Below the pieces are notes generated by a model. It worked only from the letters and a program-made list of their open reading frames with translations, had not been told where the DNA came from and made no database searches. Shown here one piece after another: positions 11,211 through 58,609 of a DNA stretch of 64,000 nucleotides. This stretch comes from a phage: sequence record PZ019084.1. One strand, given 5' to 3'. The first letter of the stretch is position 1. Every line of letters begins with the position of its first letter. Made by a program: the position numbers and the translations under genes.

Positions 11211-12380
11211 TTAAAAATATTTTTTAAAACTCATCATAACTTTATCATCAACATCATTATCAATCTGTGCTACAAGATAAGATGATAGTTCTACTTCTTG
11301 TGGCGCGGATTGAACATTATCAGAATTAAGATATTCACGAATCCAAGGATACGGGTGTTTAACCGGAGCATCGGTAATTGGGCATGGAAGACCGCACTGT
11401 TTCATACGAGATACAGTTAAGTAATCAATAAAGCTCCACATGCTATTTGTATTTAATCCAGGAACATCGCCATCTTTAAATAAATGAACTGCCCAGTCTT
11501 TTTCTTGACGGTTAACTTCCATGAAAATATCAACTGCTTCTTGTTCACACTCTTGGGCAATTTTAACCCATTCATCGCCATCAGTGCCAAGTTGAAGTTG
11601 ACGAATAATATATTGAGTGCCTTTAAGGTGAAGCTGTTCATCACGAGCAATGAACTTCATAATCTTGGCATTACCTTCCATGATTTCCATGTTTTTATGG
11701 AAGTTAAAGGTACATGCGAAAGATACATAAAAACGAATAGCTTCCAATGCGTTGATTACATGAAGGCAAAGATAAAGAGATTTCATTAATGCTCGTTTAG
11801 TACATTCAACAACTTTGCCTAACTCTTCTTTACGAAATCCTTCTGATAAAATTCCTTCATAATCTTCAACCGCATTCTGATATTCACGAGTCTTAACTAG
11901 AACATCATCATAATAGCGACCAATGGACTCGGCACGTTTCATAATAGCTTTATCTAATACAATCTCATCAAACACCTTTGACGGATCAGTATAAAGATTT
12001 CGCATAATATGAGTGTATGAACGACTGTGAATAGTTTCACTAAAAGTCCATGTAGCAACCCATGTATCAAGGCTTGGGTCTGAAATTAATGACATAAGTA
12101 CAGCAGACGGTGCACGACCCTGAATGCTATCCAAAAGTGATTGATACTTCAGGTTATTAGTAAAAATATCTTGCTGATACTGAGGAAGCTTGTTAAATTG
12201 TGCAGCATCCATCATTAAGTTTACTTCTTCAGGACGCCAGAAAAATGACAACTGCTTTTCAGTTAAATCTTCAAAAACTTTATGGCGTTGAATATCATAA
12301 CGCGCAATACCAAGACCTGAACCGAAGAACATAGGTTCTTTTAAAACATCAACTGGATTTGTATTAAAAACTGTAGACAT
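11211..12380 (-). CDS. nrdB: ribonucleotide reductase small subunit, no intron
   Basis: 389-aa continuous ORF; T4 NrdB is 388 aa but interrupted by a group I intron there. Confidence 0.9.
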   Translation of the reverse strand: MSTVFNTNPVDVLKEPMFFGSGLGIARYDIQRHKVFEDLTEKQLSFFWRPEEVNLMMDAAQFNKLPQYQQDIFTNNLKYQSLLDSIQGRAPSAVLMSLISDPSLDTWVATWTFSETIHSRSYTHIMRNLYTDPSKVFDEIVLDKAIMKRAESIGRYYDDVLVKTREYQNAVEDYEGILSEGFRKEELGKVVECTKRALMKSLYLCLHVINALEAIRFYVSFACTFNFHKNMEIMEGNAKIMKFIARDEQLHLKGTQYIIRQLQLGTDGDEWVKIAQECEQEAVDIFMEVNRQEKDWAVHLFKDGDVPGLNTNSMWSFIDYLTVSRMKQCGLPCPITDAPVKHPYPWIREYLNSDNVQSAPQEVELSSYLVAQIDNDVDDKVMMSFKKYF

Positions 12381-12414
12381 ATTATTCTCGCTTATTATAG
12401 GTTTAAATATTTAA

Positions 12415-13206
12415 TCACATATTATGTATAAGCACTTCAGTCTGAAATGATGCACCTTTCTTTTGCTTCCTGTACATGGTTTCAAAATATTCGATTTTGA
12501 AATTATTAGAAAGGGCCCAATCTTTTAGAATATAATTATTAATATCGTCTGATAGATTATTAGTGATAATAAATTTAGACTTTGAGCGTTTAATTTTATC
12601 TAATAATTCTAATTCATCCTTTTCTTCCCATCCTGAATATTTAAATTTAGTAGAAAGATATGGCGGGTCAATGAATAAATTTTTGTTTTCAAAATCTAAA
12701 TCTTTGAATGATTTATTACTAAATGTAAATCGGTGCTGTCTATTTTTAAATTCAGAAAATTTATCCTGTTGAGACTTATTAAAAGAAGTTCTAGAATACT
12801 TGGCTCTATTGGCGAAAGCCGCATTATAGTTACCATTACTAGAAAATCGGATTAACGAACTGAATGAAAATAAATGTAAAACATAAAGATATAGTCCATT
12901 TTTGGTTTTATCATACTCTTTTGACAGATTATAAAAGGGTGCTGAATCTTTGTCATTCAAATTGAAGTCTTCAATAATTTGAACTATATCATTGATTGAA
13001 GATACTTTCATCTTTTTATACATGTCTATAAGAGGAGTGTTAATATCATTACATATAACATCTCTCTGGCAATTCATAGAAAATCCAAGACCGCCACAAA
13101 AAGCATCCAAAACAGGCTTATCGTCAAAGCGGTTTGAAAATTGTCTAATAAATGGCATATACTTGTGCTTTGCACCCGGATATGTTATTGCAGGTAGGTC
13201 TTTCAT
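12415..13206 (-). CDS. Dam-family N6-adenine DNA methyltransferase
   Basis: 263 aa with FCGGLGFS (AdoMet motif I) and DPPY (motif IV); overall resemblance to T4 Dam by eye. Sits between nrdA and nrdB. Confidence 0.8.
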   Translation of the reverse strand: MKDLPAITYPGAKHKYMPFIRQFSNRFDDKPVLDAFCGGLGFSMNCQRDVICNDINTPLIDMYKKMKVSSINDIVQIIEDFNLNDKDSAPFYNLSKEYDKTKNGLYLYVLHLFSFSSLIRFSSNGNYNAAFANRAKYSRTSFNKSQQDKFSEFKNRQHRFTFSNKSFKDLDFENKNLFIDPPYLSTKFKYSGWEEKDELELLDKIKRSKSKFIITNNLSDDINNYILKDWALSNNFKIEYFETMYRKQKKGASFQTEVLIHNM

Positions 13207-13250
13207 GTTATTTCTCGTTTGTTAGTGACTCGTCCGTGAGTCAAATTATA

Positions 13251-15515
13251 TCATAATTTACAGGATGAACAATCTTCAGCTTTTGGAGTTTCTATTTCAT
13301 AATCATCAGTACCGGAACCATCACGAGTATTATGATAATAGAAGTTTTTAATGCCATAATACCATCCGTATAGCATGTCATCAATCATTACAGACATTGG
13401 AACCTTTCCTTTTGGAAAAATCTGCGGGTCATAATATGTATTAGCTGAAGCTGATTGACATACCCATTTCAGCATAATAGCTACCTGCGTAAGATAAGGT
13501 TTATTGCCTTTCTTAGCTAATTTCCACGTATAATCATAGAGGTCTATGTTATGCTCAATATTGGGCACGACTTGATTAAAGGAACCCTCTTTTGATTCTT
13601 TAACAGAGACTGGTCCACGTGGAGGCTCGATACCGTTTGTACTGTTAGAAACTTGGGAAGATGACTCACATGGCATAAGTGCTGATAATGTGCTATTACG
13701 GATGCCAAAGAGCTTAAGGTCTTCCCGCAGCGACGACCAGTCACAAACGTATTTTGGAGCTGCGATTTGGTCAATCTTTTTATTGTACCAGTCGATAGGT
13801 AATTCGCCTCGAGACCAACGAGTGTCTGAATAATATTCGCAAGGTCCTTTTTCTTTGGCGAGCTTAATGGATGCTTTAATGAGTCCATACTGTAATCTCT
13901 CAAATAGTTCATGTGTTAAATCGTTAGCATCTTCATAAGAAGCAAAATTACTTGCCAACCAAGCTGCATAGTTAGTAACACCTACACCGAGATTTCGACG
14001 CTTTTTAGCTTTTTCTGCTTCAGGAACTGGATATCCTTGGTAATCCAAAAGATTATCAAGAGCACGAACTTGGACTTCTGCCAATTCGTTAATTTTATCT
14101 TGGTCTTGCCAATCGAAGTTATCTAACACAAATGCAGATAACGTACACAATCCAATTTCAGCATCAGGACTATTCACGTCATTTGTTGGAATAGCAATTT
14201 CACAACACAAGTTACTCTGACGAATAGGTGCCTTTTCACGAATAAATGGAGTATAGTTATTCGTATTATCAATGAACTGTACATAAATCCTTGCTGTTCC
14301 TGATCGTTCAGTCATGAGCAATTCAAACAGTTCACGGGCTTTAATGCGCTTTTTACGAATATTAGGGTCTTTTTCTGCGGCTTCGTACAATTCACGGAAA
14401 CGGTCTTGGTCTTTAAAATAAGAATAATAAAGTTCGCCACCCATTTCATGTGGACTGAACAGAGTAATGTAGTCGTTCTTTCCAAAACGTTCCATCATCA
14501 AATCATTCAGCTGGACGCCATAATCCATATGACGGATACGGTTTTCTTCTACACCTTTGTTATTTTTCAAAACGAGAAGATTTTCAACTTCCAAATGCCA
14601 AATAGGATAATAAGCAGTAGCAGCGCCGCCACGAATTCCGCCTTGTGAACATGATTTAACAGCAGTCTGAAAATGTTTCCAAAAAGGAATAACACCAGTA
14701 TGACGCACTTCACCTGTGCCAATCTTAGAACCTTCAGCACGAATCATACCAACGTTAATGCCAATTCCAGCGCGTTTGGAGATATATTCAACAATTGAAG
14801 CAGAAGCCTTATTGATAGACTTCAGCGAATCACCTGCTTCAATAACAACGCATGAACTAAACTGTCGAGTTGGAGTACGACAACCAGCCATAATAGGAGT
14901 TGGTAATGAAATCTGTCGAGTAGATACCGCTTCATAAAAACGAATAACGTGTTTTAGTCTATCAACAGGTTCATCTTGATGCAGTGCCATTCCAATAGTC
15001 ATAAATGCAAACTGTGGAGTTTCATAAATTTGACCAGTGGTTTTATCTTTAACTAGATATTTTTCTTTTAATTGCATCGCCCCGGAATAAGTAAATTCCA
15101 TATCCCGCTCGTGCTTAATTTTTGATTCTAAAAATGTAATTTCTTCTGCTGAATATTTTGACAACAATTCAGGGTCATATTTACCTTCATTTACACAGTA
15201 AGAAATATGGTCAATAAATGAACGTGGTTCATATTGTCCGTAAACATGCTTACGAAGAGCAAACATTAAACAGCGAGCGGCTACGTATTGATAATCAGGC
15301 TCTTCAACTGAAATAGAATTCGCAGCAGCCTTAATTACAATGGTTTGAATGTCATCAGTTGTCATTCCATCACGGAGATATGATTTAATATTTTCATATA
15401 ATTCATAAGGATCTACAGATGTTCCTTCGGCTGCCCAAGATAAAACTTTAATAATTTTTTGCGGGTCAAAGCTCTGAGAAACACCACTACTTTTGATAAC
15501 ATTAATTAATTGCAT
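13251..15515 (-). CDS. nrdA: ribonucleotide reductase large subunit
   Basis: 754 aa, same as T4 NrdA; class I RNR features including the C-terminal Cys pair. Confidence 0.95.
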   Translation of the reverse strand: MQLINVIKSSGVSQSFDPQKIIKVLSWAAEGTSVDPYELYENIKSYLRDGMTTDDIQTIVIKAAANSISVEEPDYQYVAARCLMFALRKHVYGQYEPRSFIDHISYCVNEGKYDPELLSKYSAEEITFLESKIKHERDMEFTYSGAMQLKEKYLVKDKTTGQIYETPQFAFMTIGMALHQDEPVDRLKHVIRFYEAVSTRQISLPTPIMAGCRTPTRQFSSCVVIEAGDSLKSINKASASIVEYISKRAGIGINVGMIRAEGSKIGTGEVRHTGVIPFWKHFQTAVKSCSQGGIRGGAATAYYPIWHLEVENLLVLKNNKGVEENRIRHMDYGVQLNDLMMERFGKNDYITLFSPHEMGGELYYSYFKDQDRFRELYEAAEKDPNIRKKRIKARELFELLMTERSGTARIYVQFIDNTNNYTPFIREKAPIRQSNLCCEIAIPTNDVNSPDAEIGLCTLSAFVLDNFDWQDQDKINELAEVQVRALDNLLDYQGYPVPEAEKAKKRRNLGVGVTNYAAWLASNFASYEDANDLTHELFERLQYGLIKASIKLAKEKGPCEYYSDTRWSRGELPIDWYNKKIDQIAAPKYVCDWSSLREDLKLFGIRNSTLSALMPCESSSQVSNSTNGIEPPRGPVSVKESKEGSFNQVVPNIEHNIDLYDYTWKLAKKGNKPYLTQVAIMLKWVCQSASANTYYDPQIFPKGKVPMSVMIDDMLYGWYYGIKNFYYHNTRDGSGTDDYEIETPKAEDCSSCKL

Positions 15516-16072: not shown

Positions 16073-16933
16073 TTACACCGCCATCTTTCCTTTCAAGACA
16101 CCGTGGGACTGATAATCTTTGAGAACGAAATCCCGTGCTGTCATATATTCAGTTAACCAATACATTTGAGTTTCAGTATCGCATTGACTGAATCCATTAG
16201 GCCAATTAATACTAAGTTTGCATAGATCCATAGGAGTTCTATTTAATATCTCTTTGCATTGCTCAATATGGTTAGAATAAATGTGTGTATTACCACCCGA
16301 GAATACCAAATCGCCCGGAACTAGTTCACACATGTCAGCAACAATATGTAAAAGAGCAGCATAACTCGCGATGTTAAATGGAAGACCGAGGAAAACATCT
16401 ACCGAACGTTGATACCATTGTAGGTCAAGGTATCCGTTACGCACATTAAACTGATAGAACATATGACAAGGTGGTAATGCCATCTGCTTGAGTTCAGCTG
16501 GATTCCATGCCGACACAATTTGACGTCTATCATTGGGAAATGTTTTAATACGATTAACAACTTCTACAATTTGATCTACACCACCAAAATCACGCCACTG
16601 TTTTCCGTAAATTGGACCAAGTTCACCACTATGATAACCTAAGTCTTTGGCCTGGTTTTCGTAGTTTTCATCCCAAATTGTTTTTCCTGCAATTAAAGAC
16701 CCATGAGTACGTTGACGTAAATCATTTACGTTAGTACTTCCTGATAAGAACCACAATAACTCAGAAATACATGCATTCCAGGCGAGCTTCTTAGTCGTTA
16801 CTGCAGGAAAACCTTTAGTTAAATCCCAGCGTAATTTAGTACCGAACAAAGCAATTGTTCCTGTGCCTGTTCGGTCATCAGTTTCATAGCCATTTTCAAA
16901 AATGTCTTTAATTAAATCTTGGTATTGTTTCAT
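16073..16933 (-). CDS. td: thymidylate synthase, no intron
   Basis: 286-aa continuous ORF with classic ThyA motifs; T4 td carries a group I intron, absent here. Confidence 0.95.
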   Translation of the reverse strand: MKQYQDLIKDIFENGYETDDRTGTGTIALFGTKLRWDLTKGFPAVTTKKLAWNACISELLWFLSGSTNVNDLRQRTHGSLIAGKTIWDENYENQAKDLGYHSGELGPIYGKQWRDFGGVDQIVEVVNRIKTFPNDRRQIVSAWNPAELKQMALPPCHMFYQFNVRNGYLDLQWYQRSVDVFLGLPFNIASYAALLHIVADMCELVPGDLVFSGGNTHIYSNHIEQCKEILNRTPMDLCKLSINWPNGFSQCDTETQMYWLTEYMTARDFVLKDYQSHGVLKGKMAV

Positions 16934-56593: not shown

Positions 56594-56794
56594 TCATTTT
56601 GAATGCTCTATAATTAATTTTAAGGCTTCTTCACTGACAAAAATTTCATCAAGACCTTCTTCTACACCCCAATCAACCACACGAAGCTGATTAGATAAGA
56701 GCTCACATACGAGCTCCTTGTCATAATTTTTAAATAGCTGGTCAATACGTTTCTTGTGGGCTTTCTTAAGTTGTCGTTTATTTAAACGAGCCAT
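56594..56794 (-). CDS. hypothetical protein
   Basis: 66-aa ORF. Confidence 0.45.
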   Translation of the reverse strand: MARLNKRQLKKAHKKRIDQLFKNYDKELVCELLSNQLRVVDWGVEEGLDEIFVSEEALKLIIEHSK

Positions 56795-57312
56795 TAATAA
56801 CCTCGGTCTTGGCGAGCGAAGTTTTCAGCATTTTTCAGATAATAAAGTTTAAAGATTTCTTCAGCCGTAAGACCGAGACCTTGGAACATGTTCAGAACGA
56901 AATGAAGAATATCAATCATTTCGAATTTAATTTCCAACTGGTCTTGTGGAGACAAATCAGTAATTAAAGTTTCACGACGTTCACCATGTTGAGCTTTCCA
57001 TGGCTTCCATACAGCAGATGCATCTTTTTCACCATTGCTCATACCACCAAGAGAAGTCAGAAGTTCGCGGAATTCATCATCAATATAATCTTTTTGATTA
57101 CGCAGCCAATCAACAACTTCGCCTGCAGTAGCCAAATCATCAGGATGACGGTTATATTCAGGTTTATCTTTAGCTAAACGAACCTGCAGAGATTTCTGCA
57201 TATCAAGCATAACCTGCAGCGGGTCTTTTTCATCACCGAGAATATCCCAGTATTCATTTTGAGCTTTATCAGCGCCTTCAATCAGTTGTGAACATTCATT
57301 AAAGTATGCCAT
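56794..57312 (-). CDS. 56: dCTPase/dUTPase (gp56)
   Basis: 172 aa from MAYFNECSQLIEGADKAQNEYWDILGD, matching T4 gp56; the ORF track adds 31 codons upstream. Confidence 0.85.
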   Translation of the reverse strand: MAYFNECSQLIEGADKAQNEYWDILGDEKDPLQVMLDMQKSLQVRLAKDKPEYNRHPDDLATAGEVVDWLRNQKDYIDDEFRELLTSLGGMSNGEKDASAVWKPWKAQHGERRETLITDLSPQDQLEIKFEMIDILHFVLNMFQGLGLTAEEIFKLYYLKNAENFARQDRGY

Positions 57313-57383
57313 TATTTTTCCTTTCAATTCATGGGTTAGTAGATTAATTATACAATAAATATATAAAGCAATAAGGAGGACAT

Positions 57384-57584
57384 ATGGTACAAAAATTAAT
57401 GGCACTTGTTAATGCCATAAAAGGTAATAAAAAACGTATAGCTTTTACTATTTCTGCTATGGTAGGAATTTTACTCTGGAATTTTGTTTTATCGCCAATT
57501 GCTATTGCTCATGGTGTTAATATTCCAGTAATTACTCTTGATACATTCGTAGATTTAGCATTTGCTTTAGTTGGGTTAATTTAA
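57384..57584 (+). CDS. small hydrophobic protein on the opposite strand between genes 56 and 61
   Basis: 66-aa ORF with a strong AAGGAGG Shine-Dalgarno 4 to 5 nt before the ATG; predicted transmembrane segments. Uncertain. Confidence 0.4.
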   Translation: MVQKLMALVNAIKGNKKRIAFTISAMVGILLWNFVLSPIAIAHGVNIPVITLDTFVDLAFALVGLI

Positions 57585-58609
57585 ATCTTAGCATATTTAG
57601 ATAGCCGCATTTTAGCCATCAACCCTTGGGCAATATTATTTTTCATATATTCCATAATTTGTTCAGGGGTTGCACCTTCCTTTCTAATCATATCATTAAC
57701 ATCTTTTGATTTCCAGGGAGATTTGTCCCAAAACATAACCCTTTCTCCTGCATCAACCAATTTAGTCATTCGTTTAATAGTGTCAGGGTGACGAGGTTCA
57801 TTATCTAAAACCCACACACGTCTATCTTTAAATGGAACAATTTCTAGGTCTAATTGACCACCCGTAATAGCTATACCATTTTCAATAAAAAGTGAATCTA
57901 TAGGTCCTTCTAGAACATATACATCACCATCTTTGACTCGTTCAACTCCATAGATTTTTGTTGCCTCAGGATAAGCTTTGATGGTGATATATTTTTGAGG
58001 AGCATCTTTCTTTAATGCACGTCCTTGAAAAGACTCAGCTTTTCCATTAGCATTATAAATTGGAATAACAAGACGAGGCTCAGGTATTTCCTTTTTATAT
58101 GTTCCTGGCGCTATACTATTAACTAATTTAGGCCATTCGGTTGTAAACCAAAGATATTTCCATTTATCCTTTGGAATACAACGAGCTTTTACGTATTTTA
58201 TAATTGGATGGTCTTCCGTCAGTTTATCTAATCTAATGCATGACGGAAGAGATTTAATTATTTTCTTCTCAGGTTGTTTAGGAAGTTCTTTAGGTTTTTC
58301 TACTGGACGACTTTTACCTTTTTCTTTTCTTATTTCAAAGATATACTCACGATATAAATCAGGTTCAAACTCCTTTAAATATATTCCGATTGGTGCATGA
58401 TAGTTGCAGTTATAACAATGAATATTTCCTTCATTATTATCACCATAATACCATCCACGGGCTTTATTTTGGTCGGTTTTTGAATCTCCACAAACGGGGC
58501 ATCTAAACCGTAATTTAAAAGTTGAACTATTATTTACTTGTGCGAATTTAGGTAAATGAGCCAATGCACGGTATGCAAACTCATTATCAATCCAAGGTAT
58601 TGATGACAT
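57581..58609 (-). CDS. 61: gp61 DNA primase
   Basis: 342 aa, same as T4 gp61; N-terminal zinc ribbon (CPVCGDSK...CYNC) and a TOPRIM region. Confidence 0.9.
   Translation of the reverse strand: MSSIPWIDNEFAYRALAHLPKFAQVNNSSTFKLRFRCPVCGDSKTDQNKARGWYYGDNNEGNIHCYNCNYHAPIGIYLKEFEPDLYREYIFEIRKEKGKSRPVEKPKELPKQPEKKIIKSLPSCIRLDKLTEDHPIIKYVKARCIPKDKWKYLWFTTEWPKLVNSIAPGTYKKEIPEPRLVIPIYNANGKAESFQGRALKKDAPQKYITIKAYPEATKIYGVERVKDGDVYVLEGPIDSLFIENGIAITGGQLDLEIVPFKDRRVWVLDNEPRHPDTIKRMTKLVDAGERVMFWDKSPWKSKDVNDMIRKEGATPEQIMEYMKNNIAQGLMAKMRLSKYAKI

Follow-up and report, generated by a model that had tools for sequence, protein, structure and literature searches.

The spacer between nrdA and nrdB is a known homing-endonuclease hot spot of T-even phages. 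Cassettes carrying mobE occur there sporadically, embedded in the nrdA-nrdB transcription unit. The mobE gene is co-transcribed with nrdA, and in phages without mobE the nrdB middle promoter has been placed where the TATAAT element described below lies (Wilson & Edgell 2009). In T4 itself the spacer holds mobE and nrdB.1, and the dam gene lies between genes 56 and 61; both positions had been given in the original prediction for the locus described here and are borne out, with nrdB.1 as an addition.

Two Dam-family enzymes serve as the reference points for the present study. T4 Dam (M.EcoT4Dam; PDB 1Q0S, 1YFJ, 1YFL) is a phage protein of 259 aa, and E. coli Dam (EcoDam; PDB 2G1P, 4RTJ) is encoded by a chromosomal housekeeping gene. 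EcoDam contacts GATC through the hairpin residues Y119 (by intercalation), N120, L122, R124 and P134; R124, the dominant determinant, reads the guanine in the fourth base pair, and P134 contacts the third base pair (PMC4417163).

Here we analyse a predicted adenine methylase gene that occupies the nrdA-nrdB spacer in phage sequence record PZ019084.1. The whole stretch analysed, 64,000 nucleotides of one strand, is referred to as the window.

A predicted Dam-family methylase gene between nrdA and nrdB

Positions 11211..15515 of the window hold three collinear minus-strand genes, nrdA, the methylase gene and nrdB. The features of this region, the genes taken from the open reading frames and the motifs read from the sequence, are as follows.

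13251..15515, minus strand: nrdA, the upstream flank, intact, 754 aa
12415..13206, minus strand: methylase open reading frame, 263 aa, ATG start
13078..13101, minus strand: motif I, FCGGLGFS, the AdoMet-binding FxGxG, residues 36-43
12658..12669, minus strand: motif IV, DPPY, catalytic, residues 180-183
11211..12380, minus strand: nrdB, the downstream flank, without intron, 389 aa

The intergenic gaps are short (44 nt between nrdA and the methylase gene, 34 nt between the methylase gene and nrdB), and the methylase is the sole ORF of the spacer. The original prediction of a Dam-family ORF with FCGGLGFS and DPPY at this place holds for the ORF at 12415..13206: its product matches Pfam PF02086, the D12-class N6-adenine DNA methyltransferases, with an E-value of 8e-24 and a score of 85.1 bits (cut-off, 22), over residues 9-245 and profile positions 1-251 of 253. 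It also matches PHROG 56, 'DNA methyltransferase' (E 4.5e-36), and among PADLOC models 'orphan methyltransferase' ranks first (E 4e-39). When solved structures are ranked by sequence, T4 Dam is at the top (E 4e-37), and E. coli Dam reaches about 3e-5.

The order of the motifs is that of the alpha class, with FCGGLGF at residues 36-42, the recognition hairpin at 113-134 and DPPY at 180-183, aligned with T4Dam and EcoDam; F36, G38 and DPPY are invariant in both of our alignments (A1 and A2). The AlphaFold2 model of the protein has a pLDDT of 87.5 and a pTM of 0.87, and a Foldseek search with it returns T4Dam at a TM-score of 0.83, EcoDam at 0.74 and DpnM at 0.72. With the NCBIfam model TIGR00571 'dam' the protein scores 92.8 bits, under the cut-off of 114.85, which T4 Dam clears with 239.5. 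The product is thus identified, by profile, motif order and modelled fold, as a predicted full-length D12/Dam-family N6-adenine DNA methyltransferase.

PADLOC models of Type II methyltransferases match the protein as well, as they would if it were the modification half of a restriction-modification system or part of another defence or exclusion system; in phage BGP, moreover, the canonical dam gene at 56-61 adjoins a gene described as restriction-enzyme-like. We give this reading almost no credence, given that PADLOC ranks the orphan model first and that the neighbours are nrdA and nrdB, at the gaps stated and with no other ORF between them, an arrangement that recurs at all 11 other loci. No adjacent cognate restriction endonuclease gene was found in the window or in the related loci, and the window's nrdA-nrdB spacer holds no HNH or GIY-YIG nuclease ORF. 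We considered both a restriction-modification partner and a homing endonuclease as further occupants of the spacer and set them aside, as neither is present.

We compared seven copies of the methylase gene, which are 76–99% identical. All of their ORFs are intact, their catalytic motifs are invariant, and pairwise dN/dS lies between 0.04 and 0.18 even at dS > 1: the gene is under purifying selection. These observations, together with the confident T4Dam-like fold of the model, argue against a decaying, non-functional remnant carried as a passive passenger in a hyperplastic spacer, a reading that could appeal to the rare and sporadic distribution of the gene and to the ACG that the window has in place of an upstream in-frame ATG used by some relatives (MRNNM...). 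The second ATG, the start at 13206, is conserved in every copy, and we find the remnant reading scarcely credible. As part of the joint explanation set out below, which we hold with good confidence as a whole, the gene is predicted to be functional and to encode an active stand-alone (orphan) methylase of the Dam family.

The -10-like element, the hairpin and the junctions

Four elements surround the methylase ORF within the spacer.

13245..13250, minus strand: TATAAT, a -10-like element directly after the nrdA stop, an ancestral spacer element (empty-site comparison)
13226..13243, minus strand: hairpin TGACTC-ACGGAC-GAGTCA with a 6-bp stem, just upstream of the insertion point (fold and empty-site comparison)
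13207..13225, minus strand: left junction and methylase translation-initiation region, ctaacaaacgagaaataac (empty-site comparison)
12381..12414, minus strand: right junction, the 34-nt spacer with the nrdB ribosome-binding region, kept in all carrier loci

The sequence TGATATAAT occupies 13245..13253, and its TGA is the stop codon of nrdA. The methylase gene had been credited with an extended -10 and a 5' hairpin of its own, and this assignment has to be given up: in phage vB_EcoM_HZ_ZJUN4, whose spacer is empty, TGATATAAT and the hairpin are present base for base, directly before nrdB, and thus do not belong to the inserted gene. In every genus, each carrier locus has both TATAAT and the hairpin, even where TATAAT lies outside the nrdA coding sequence. 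The empty-site comparison reassigns them, as ancestral spacer elements, to nrdB. Because they are identical in empty-site phages, the methylase gene is probably co-transcribed with nrdB.

Pattern scans revealed no strict MotA box upstream of TATAAT and nothing there that matches a sigma-70 -35 element; they also gave no intrinsic terminator around the methylase gene and no convincing promoter match at either junction. One sigma-70-like match at 11 of 12 positions lies inside the ORF and was treated as chance, 14 such matches being found against 8 expected. The hairpin folds at -7.5 kcal/mol, an unremarkable energy (z = -0.89). Over eight loci 87.5% of its cells are paired, with one compensatory change from A:U to G:C; as a covariation test this is weak, as 65 of 500 shuffles equal the one compensatory pair.

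The homology between filled and empty sites stops after 'gagtcacta', just past the hairpin, and resumes at the nrdB ribosome-binding region. The nrdB gene starts with ATGtct in the carrier loci, whereas the empty site has ATGagc. In addition, the initiation region of the methylase gene (aaacgagaaataacATG) resembles that of nrdB (aagcgagaataatATG), so that a short imperfect direct repeat lies around the gene.

Distribution, exchange and relation to T4 dam

A methylase in the nrd spacer had been expected to be unusual for T-even phages, and it is. A megablast search with the spacer and its flanks finds the insert in 8 of 608 phage records; the majority among the matches listed align in the flanks only, over a length that fits a spacer without insert. 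The mobE/nrdB.1 spacer content of T4 is itself present, at a coverage of at least 80%, in 20 records only. At the protein level (tblastn), five records encode a homologue that is 98–99% identical (T4_ev240, 236Ecol005PP, EP02SG, ECO07P2 and NR1) and four encode one that is 76–80% identical (BGP, Salmonella phage CF-SP2, fDHCT2 and Klebsiella phage PhiKpNIH-6); all remaining matches are at most 41% identical. Several GenBank records already annotate the gene as 'DNA adenine methylase'.

Larger protein collections give the same picture. Among 5.8 billion clustered proteins the clade forms four clusters at 90% identity, and among 1.84 billion representatives only its own 50%-identity cluster is retrieved at E <= 1e-30, the next match being 34% identical. 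In a neighbour-joining tree with T4 Dam, EcoDam and 60-odd representatives, whose topology is star-like and unresolved, the clade falls outside the T4Dam group, separated by a long branch of its own. Within the Dam family, the methylase clade thus stands apart as a distinct and isolated lineage that has diverged deeply; it is also bound to one locus.

The order nrdA-methylase-nrdB is found in every copy with readable context. The carriers comprise six Tequatrovirus records, the Gelderlandvirus CF-SP2, the unclassified phage fDHCT2 and the Marfavirus PhiKpNIH-6, whose record ends inside the methylase gene, and the same order is seen in three metagenome contigs, two from Logan and one from ENA. 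The cassette is thus present in four lineages of the Tevenvirinae. Between the window and Marfavirus-type loci, NrdA, methylase and NrdB are all about 75–76% identical, which fits a long residence at the locus.

Within Tequatrovirus, two alleles of the methylase occur in nearly identical backgrounds. When the window is compared at the nucleotide level with BGP and with the contig L011, nrdA is 93–100% and nrdB 90–99% identical, whereas the first two-thirds of the methylase gene are only 73–81% identical. In the last third the identity rises again, to 95% and then 89% with BGP and to 94% and then 84% with L011. Conversely, the methylase alleles of BGP and CF-SP2 are 86–93% identical, and their nrdA and nrdB flanks about 80%. 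These identities form a recombination mosaic, with a single breakpoint where nrdA ends. The mosaic shows that phage lineages have exchanged the cassette by homologous recombination, which took place in the conserved flanks formed by nrdA and nrdB.

The relation to T4 dam was assessed in the 56-61 interval of the window by tblastn with T4 gp56, Dam and gp61. In this search gene 56 spans 56797..57312 and gene 61 spans 57584..58609.

57313..57583, no strand assigned: the 56-61 spacer, 271 bp, without dam (tblastn and ORF list)

The interval had been described as about 270 bp long and free of a methyltransferase. The search agrees on both counts: tblastn finds no Dam homologue there, and the gap holds one plus-strand ORF of 66 aa (57384..57584). 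No second Dam homologue was found by tblastn in the 64-kb window, in which the nrd-spacer ORF, some 44 kb away from the 56-61 gap, is the only match to T4 Dam. A 56-61 spacer without dam is not peculiar to this phage, and the same architecture is seen in 381 of 685 related phage records (matches over at least 80% of the length).

The likeness to T4 Dam had rightly been called loose. The identity is 34% by tblastn and 35% over 200 residues by BLASTP, whereas NrdA, DenA, RnlA and gp61 are 98–99% identical to their T4 counterparts (NrdA, 98.8% at the amino acid level). NrdB is 85% identical to T4 NrdB at residues 1-222 and 99% at residues 224-389. Together with its position, this supports the view that the methylase gene is neither a positional nor a near-identical orthologue of T4 dam.

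Could the gene nevertheless be the ancestral T4 dam, moved into the nrd spacer from its place between genes 56 and 61? T4 Dam is its best-scoring characterised relative, and in seven of the eight carriers tblastn, which gives one place per record, shows no second Dam homologue. Nevertheless, an identity of 34–35% amid genes that are about 98–99% identical to T4 is hard to reconcile with a relocation; in the star-like tree the T4Dam group does not enclose the clade; and BGP has both the nrd-spacer gene and a canonical dam at 56-61. Moreover, nearly all of the 381 records without dam at 56-61 also lack the nrd-spacer gene, so that the loss of dam is independent of it. A distribution complementary to that of canonical dam was considered and set aside, as seven of eight is not significant against a background of about 56% in genomes that are not independent of one another, and BGP carries both genes. 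We reject relocation, which we regard as very improbable, on the grounds of the low identity, the tree and the two genes of BGP. Of the proposal of a relocated or laterally acquired paralogue, the lateral half stands, through the mosaic and the presence in four lineages, and the relocated half falls. The comparisons support a putative deep paralogue that is laterally exchanged.

The explanation that we prefer combines these observations. A single-gene cassette would have been inserted between the pre-existing TATAAT/hairpin and the nrdB ribosome-binding site of a Tequatrovirus, where the methylase gene would most likely be transcribed with nrdB, both on transcripts that read through from nrdA and on others that start at the spacer promoter. 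The product, with AdoMet, would methylate adenine in the phage's own hydroxymethylcytosine DNA, most likely at GATC, and its role is probably that of other phage orphan methylases, namely to shield phage DNA from methylation-sensitive host nucleases. The cassette, found at the nrd locus only, spreads among several T4-like genera via recombination in the nrdA and nrdB flanks. We consider this overall account, an orphan Dam-family methylase cassette of an isolated lineage spread by recombination, to be likely.

Target specificity and comparison with known systems

The predicted target depends on the recognition hairpin and on the residues that follow it.

12805..12870, minus strand: predicted DNA-recognition beta-hairpin, residues 113-134, FSFSSLIRFSSNGNYNAAFANR, aligning with T4Dam 109-130 and EcoDam 117-138
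12787..12804, minus strand: clade-specific 6-residue insertion AKYSRT, residues 135-140, just past the hairpin (alignments A1 and A2)

In alignment A2, the EcoDam residues Y119, N120, L122, R124 and P134 correspond to F115, S116, L118, R120 and A130 in the window protein, and to F111, S112, M114, R116 and P126 in T4 Dam. In addition, the FAxR arginine of the window protein, R134, aligns with T4Dam R130, which contacts the first guanine. As most of the GATC-contacting residues of the hairpin are kept, GATC is the best guess for the target and the most likely one as predicted. The replacement of proline by alanine, the AKYSRT insertion and the NCBIfam score under the cut-off mean that this prediction is not secure. 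The insertion is confined to the clade in both alignments and lies in the block of lowest confidence in the model, with a pLDDT of 63.

These same features would be expected of a Dam-family methylase whose target has changed or been relaxed from strict GATC, in which case the two alleles may differ and give broader anti-restriction cover where dam is absent. The alanine replaces a proline that in EcoDam contacts the third base pair, and the T4 dam-h hypermethylating mutant, described by Miner and colleagues in 1989, is reportedly P126S. In the other allele (allele B), a lysine stands at the position of R120, the equivalent of EcoDam R124, a serine at that of A130, and the hairpin tip is rewritten, SMLKFSKDDKYIAS against SLIRFSSNGNYNAA; the divergent 5' two-thirds of the gene that have been exchanged by recombination include the hairpin. 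On the other hand, the window allele retains L118, R120, the intercalating aromatic residue and the arginine of FAxR, and lysine is also able to read guanine. Other T4Dam-like representatives naturally have S, K or Q at the proline position, so that the change to alanine by itself says little. We regard an altered target as rather unlikely. The fuller form of this reading, a natural specificity variant of the T4Dam fold with two or more recombining alleles (alanine in the window; serine and lysine in the other; the insertion in both) that would act on relaxed or non-GATC sites as an exchangeable anti-restriction module of T4-like phages whose canonical dam has been lost, we consider unlikely.

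In the papers on carrier phages we found no methylation data. The Durham-collection paper on NR1 and BGP covers cytosine modifications only, and the only Dam-like gene that it mentions is the canonical one of BGP, Geo and EL. In the literature searched, no experimental characterisation of the GenBank homologues was found.

Under the preferred account of an orphan methylase cassette, a methyltransferase would be a third kind of occupant of the nrdA-nrdB spacer, and the locus would illustrate clearly how a single-gene accessory cassette crosses phage genera by recombination in conserved flanks. For annotators, the nrd-spacer gene should not be equated with T4 dam. The isolated carriers NR1, BGP, EP02SG, 236Ecol005PP and ECO07P2 make an uncharacterised Dam branch accessible. 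Practical value is limited, and neither a new mechanism nor a new kind of system is involved.

The nearest annotated homologue is WWT49796.1 from phage 236Ecol005PP, a GenBank 'DNA adenine methylase' that is 98.5% identical and lies at the same locus. With T4 Dam the protein shares the D12/alpha-class architecture at a similar length (263 against 259 aa), the FxGxG and DPPY motifs, the fold and a recognition hairpin of the pattern F-S-x-x-x-R-F...F-(G/A)-x-R, and both are stand-alone phage genes without a nuclease partner. It differs from T4 Dam in its low overall identity, with a divergent C-terminal third, in its place between nrdA and nrdB instead of 56 and 61, in the alanine at the position of Pro126 and the 6-residue insertion after the hairpin, and in falling under the NCBIfam Dam cut-off that T4 Dam exceeds.

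With EcoDam the fold is alike, and the equivalents of the GATC-reading Y119 (as an aromatic), L122 and R124 are kept. The identity is however only about 17%, the nrd-spacer protein has no equivalent of K9 and carries alanine for P134, and it is encoded by a phage cassette in contrast to the chromosomal EcoDam gene.

The mobE cassette occupies the same intergenic hot spot and, like the methylase, moves along with the flanking nrd sequence. Unlike mobE-type cassettes, which encode HNH or GIY-YIG nucleases, the cassette described here encodes a predicted methyltransferase without self-mobilising activity, and its movement would be by passive homologous recombination. The orphan Dam-family methylase as a kind, the hyperplastic spacer and the public annotation are already known; what is new, as read from the comparisons above, is a distinct, isolated, locus-bound lineage exchanged among genera, and the reassignment of the putative promoter and hairpin to nrdB.

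The 3' end of the methylase gene

The two alleles of the Dam-family methylase gene, that of the window and that shared by phage BGP and the metagenome contig L011, are not equally divergent along their length. Over the first two-thirds of the gene their nucleotide identity is 73–81%, lower than in the 3' third (12415..12665), where it reaches 84–95% (95% and 89% in comparison to BGP, 94% and 84% in comparison to L011). The last 24 nt of the gene, gaagtgcttatacataatatgtga, are almost invariant across genera. This similarity could reflect a recombination breakpoint, or alternatively a signal for nrdB expression embedded in the methylase 3' end, for which the T4 nrdB promoter located inside mobE provides a parallel. 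One promoter-like match lies within the ORF:

12928..12956, (-) strand: sigma-70-like promoter match, 11/12 (ATGACA, 17-nt spacer, TATAAT), sense direction within the methylase ORF

This match is probably a chance occurrence in AT-rich DNA.

Divergent segments in nrdB and td

A sharp divergence patch is present at about nt 465–615 of nrdB (window about 11766..11916), a short way 5' of the intron site in T4 nrdB, with 55–72% nucleotide identity in all pairwise comparisons, even between phages that are otherwise 95–99% identical. The recombination point reported for mobE homing, at nt 505–515, is near this patch. Divergence is also found in td:

16073..16933: td, intron-less

Over residues 184–286, the Td of the window shares only about 60% identity with that of T4. 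Residues 186–286 are 100% identical to the metagenome contig L011, which carries only that part of td; identity to the Td of other genera is 78–85%. Judged from these alignments, the window looks to carry a divergent C-terminal td allele.

The spacer between genes 56 and 61

The dCTPase gp56 (gene 56, 56794..57312) is only 74% identical to its T4 counterpart, whereas the neighbouring gp61 (gene 61, 57581..58609) is 98% identical, and this difference points to a possible boundary between alleles at the spacer that lacks dam in the window. A promoter-like pattern lies in this spacer, just upstream of gene 56:

57347..57370, (-) strand: exact MotA-box plus -10 pattern, TGCTTTATATATTTATTGTATAAT

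In T4, the corresponding neighbourhood contains oriA and its primer promoter. The 56-61 region of BGP (L003 3104-4743; OZ035849.1 33103-34742) retains the small reverse ORF of the window spacer, and additionally carries the canonical dam and a 186-aa hypothetical gene. A 2026 paper describes the extra gene as resembling a restriction enzyme and as occurring exclusively in BGP, Geo and EL.

nrdA in the closest relative

In phage 236Ecol005PP (L001 5152-8320; PP434423.1 137855-141023), nrdA is present as two ORFs, split by a gene annotated as 'putative mobile endonuclease'. The window, in contrast to this otherwise closest relative, has an intact nrdA. A similar genes-in-pieces arrangement of nrdA has been described in phage Aeh1.
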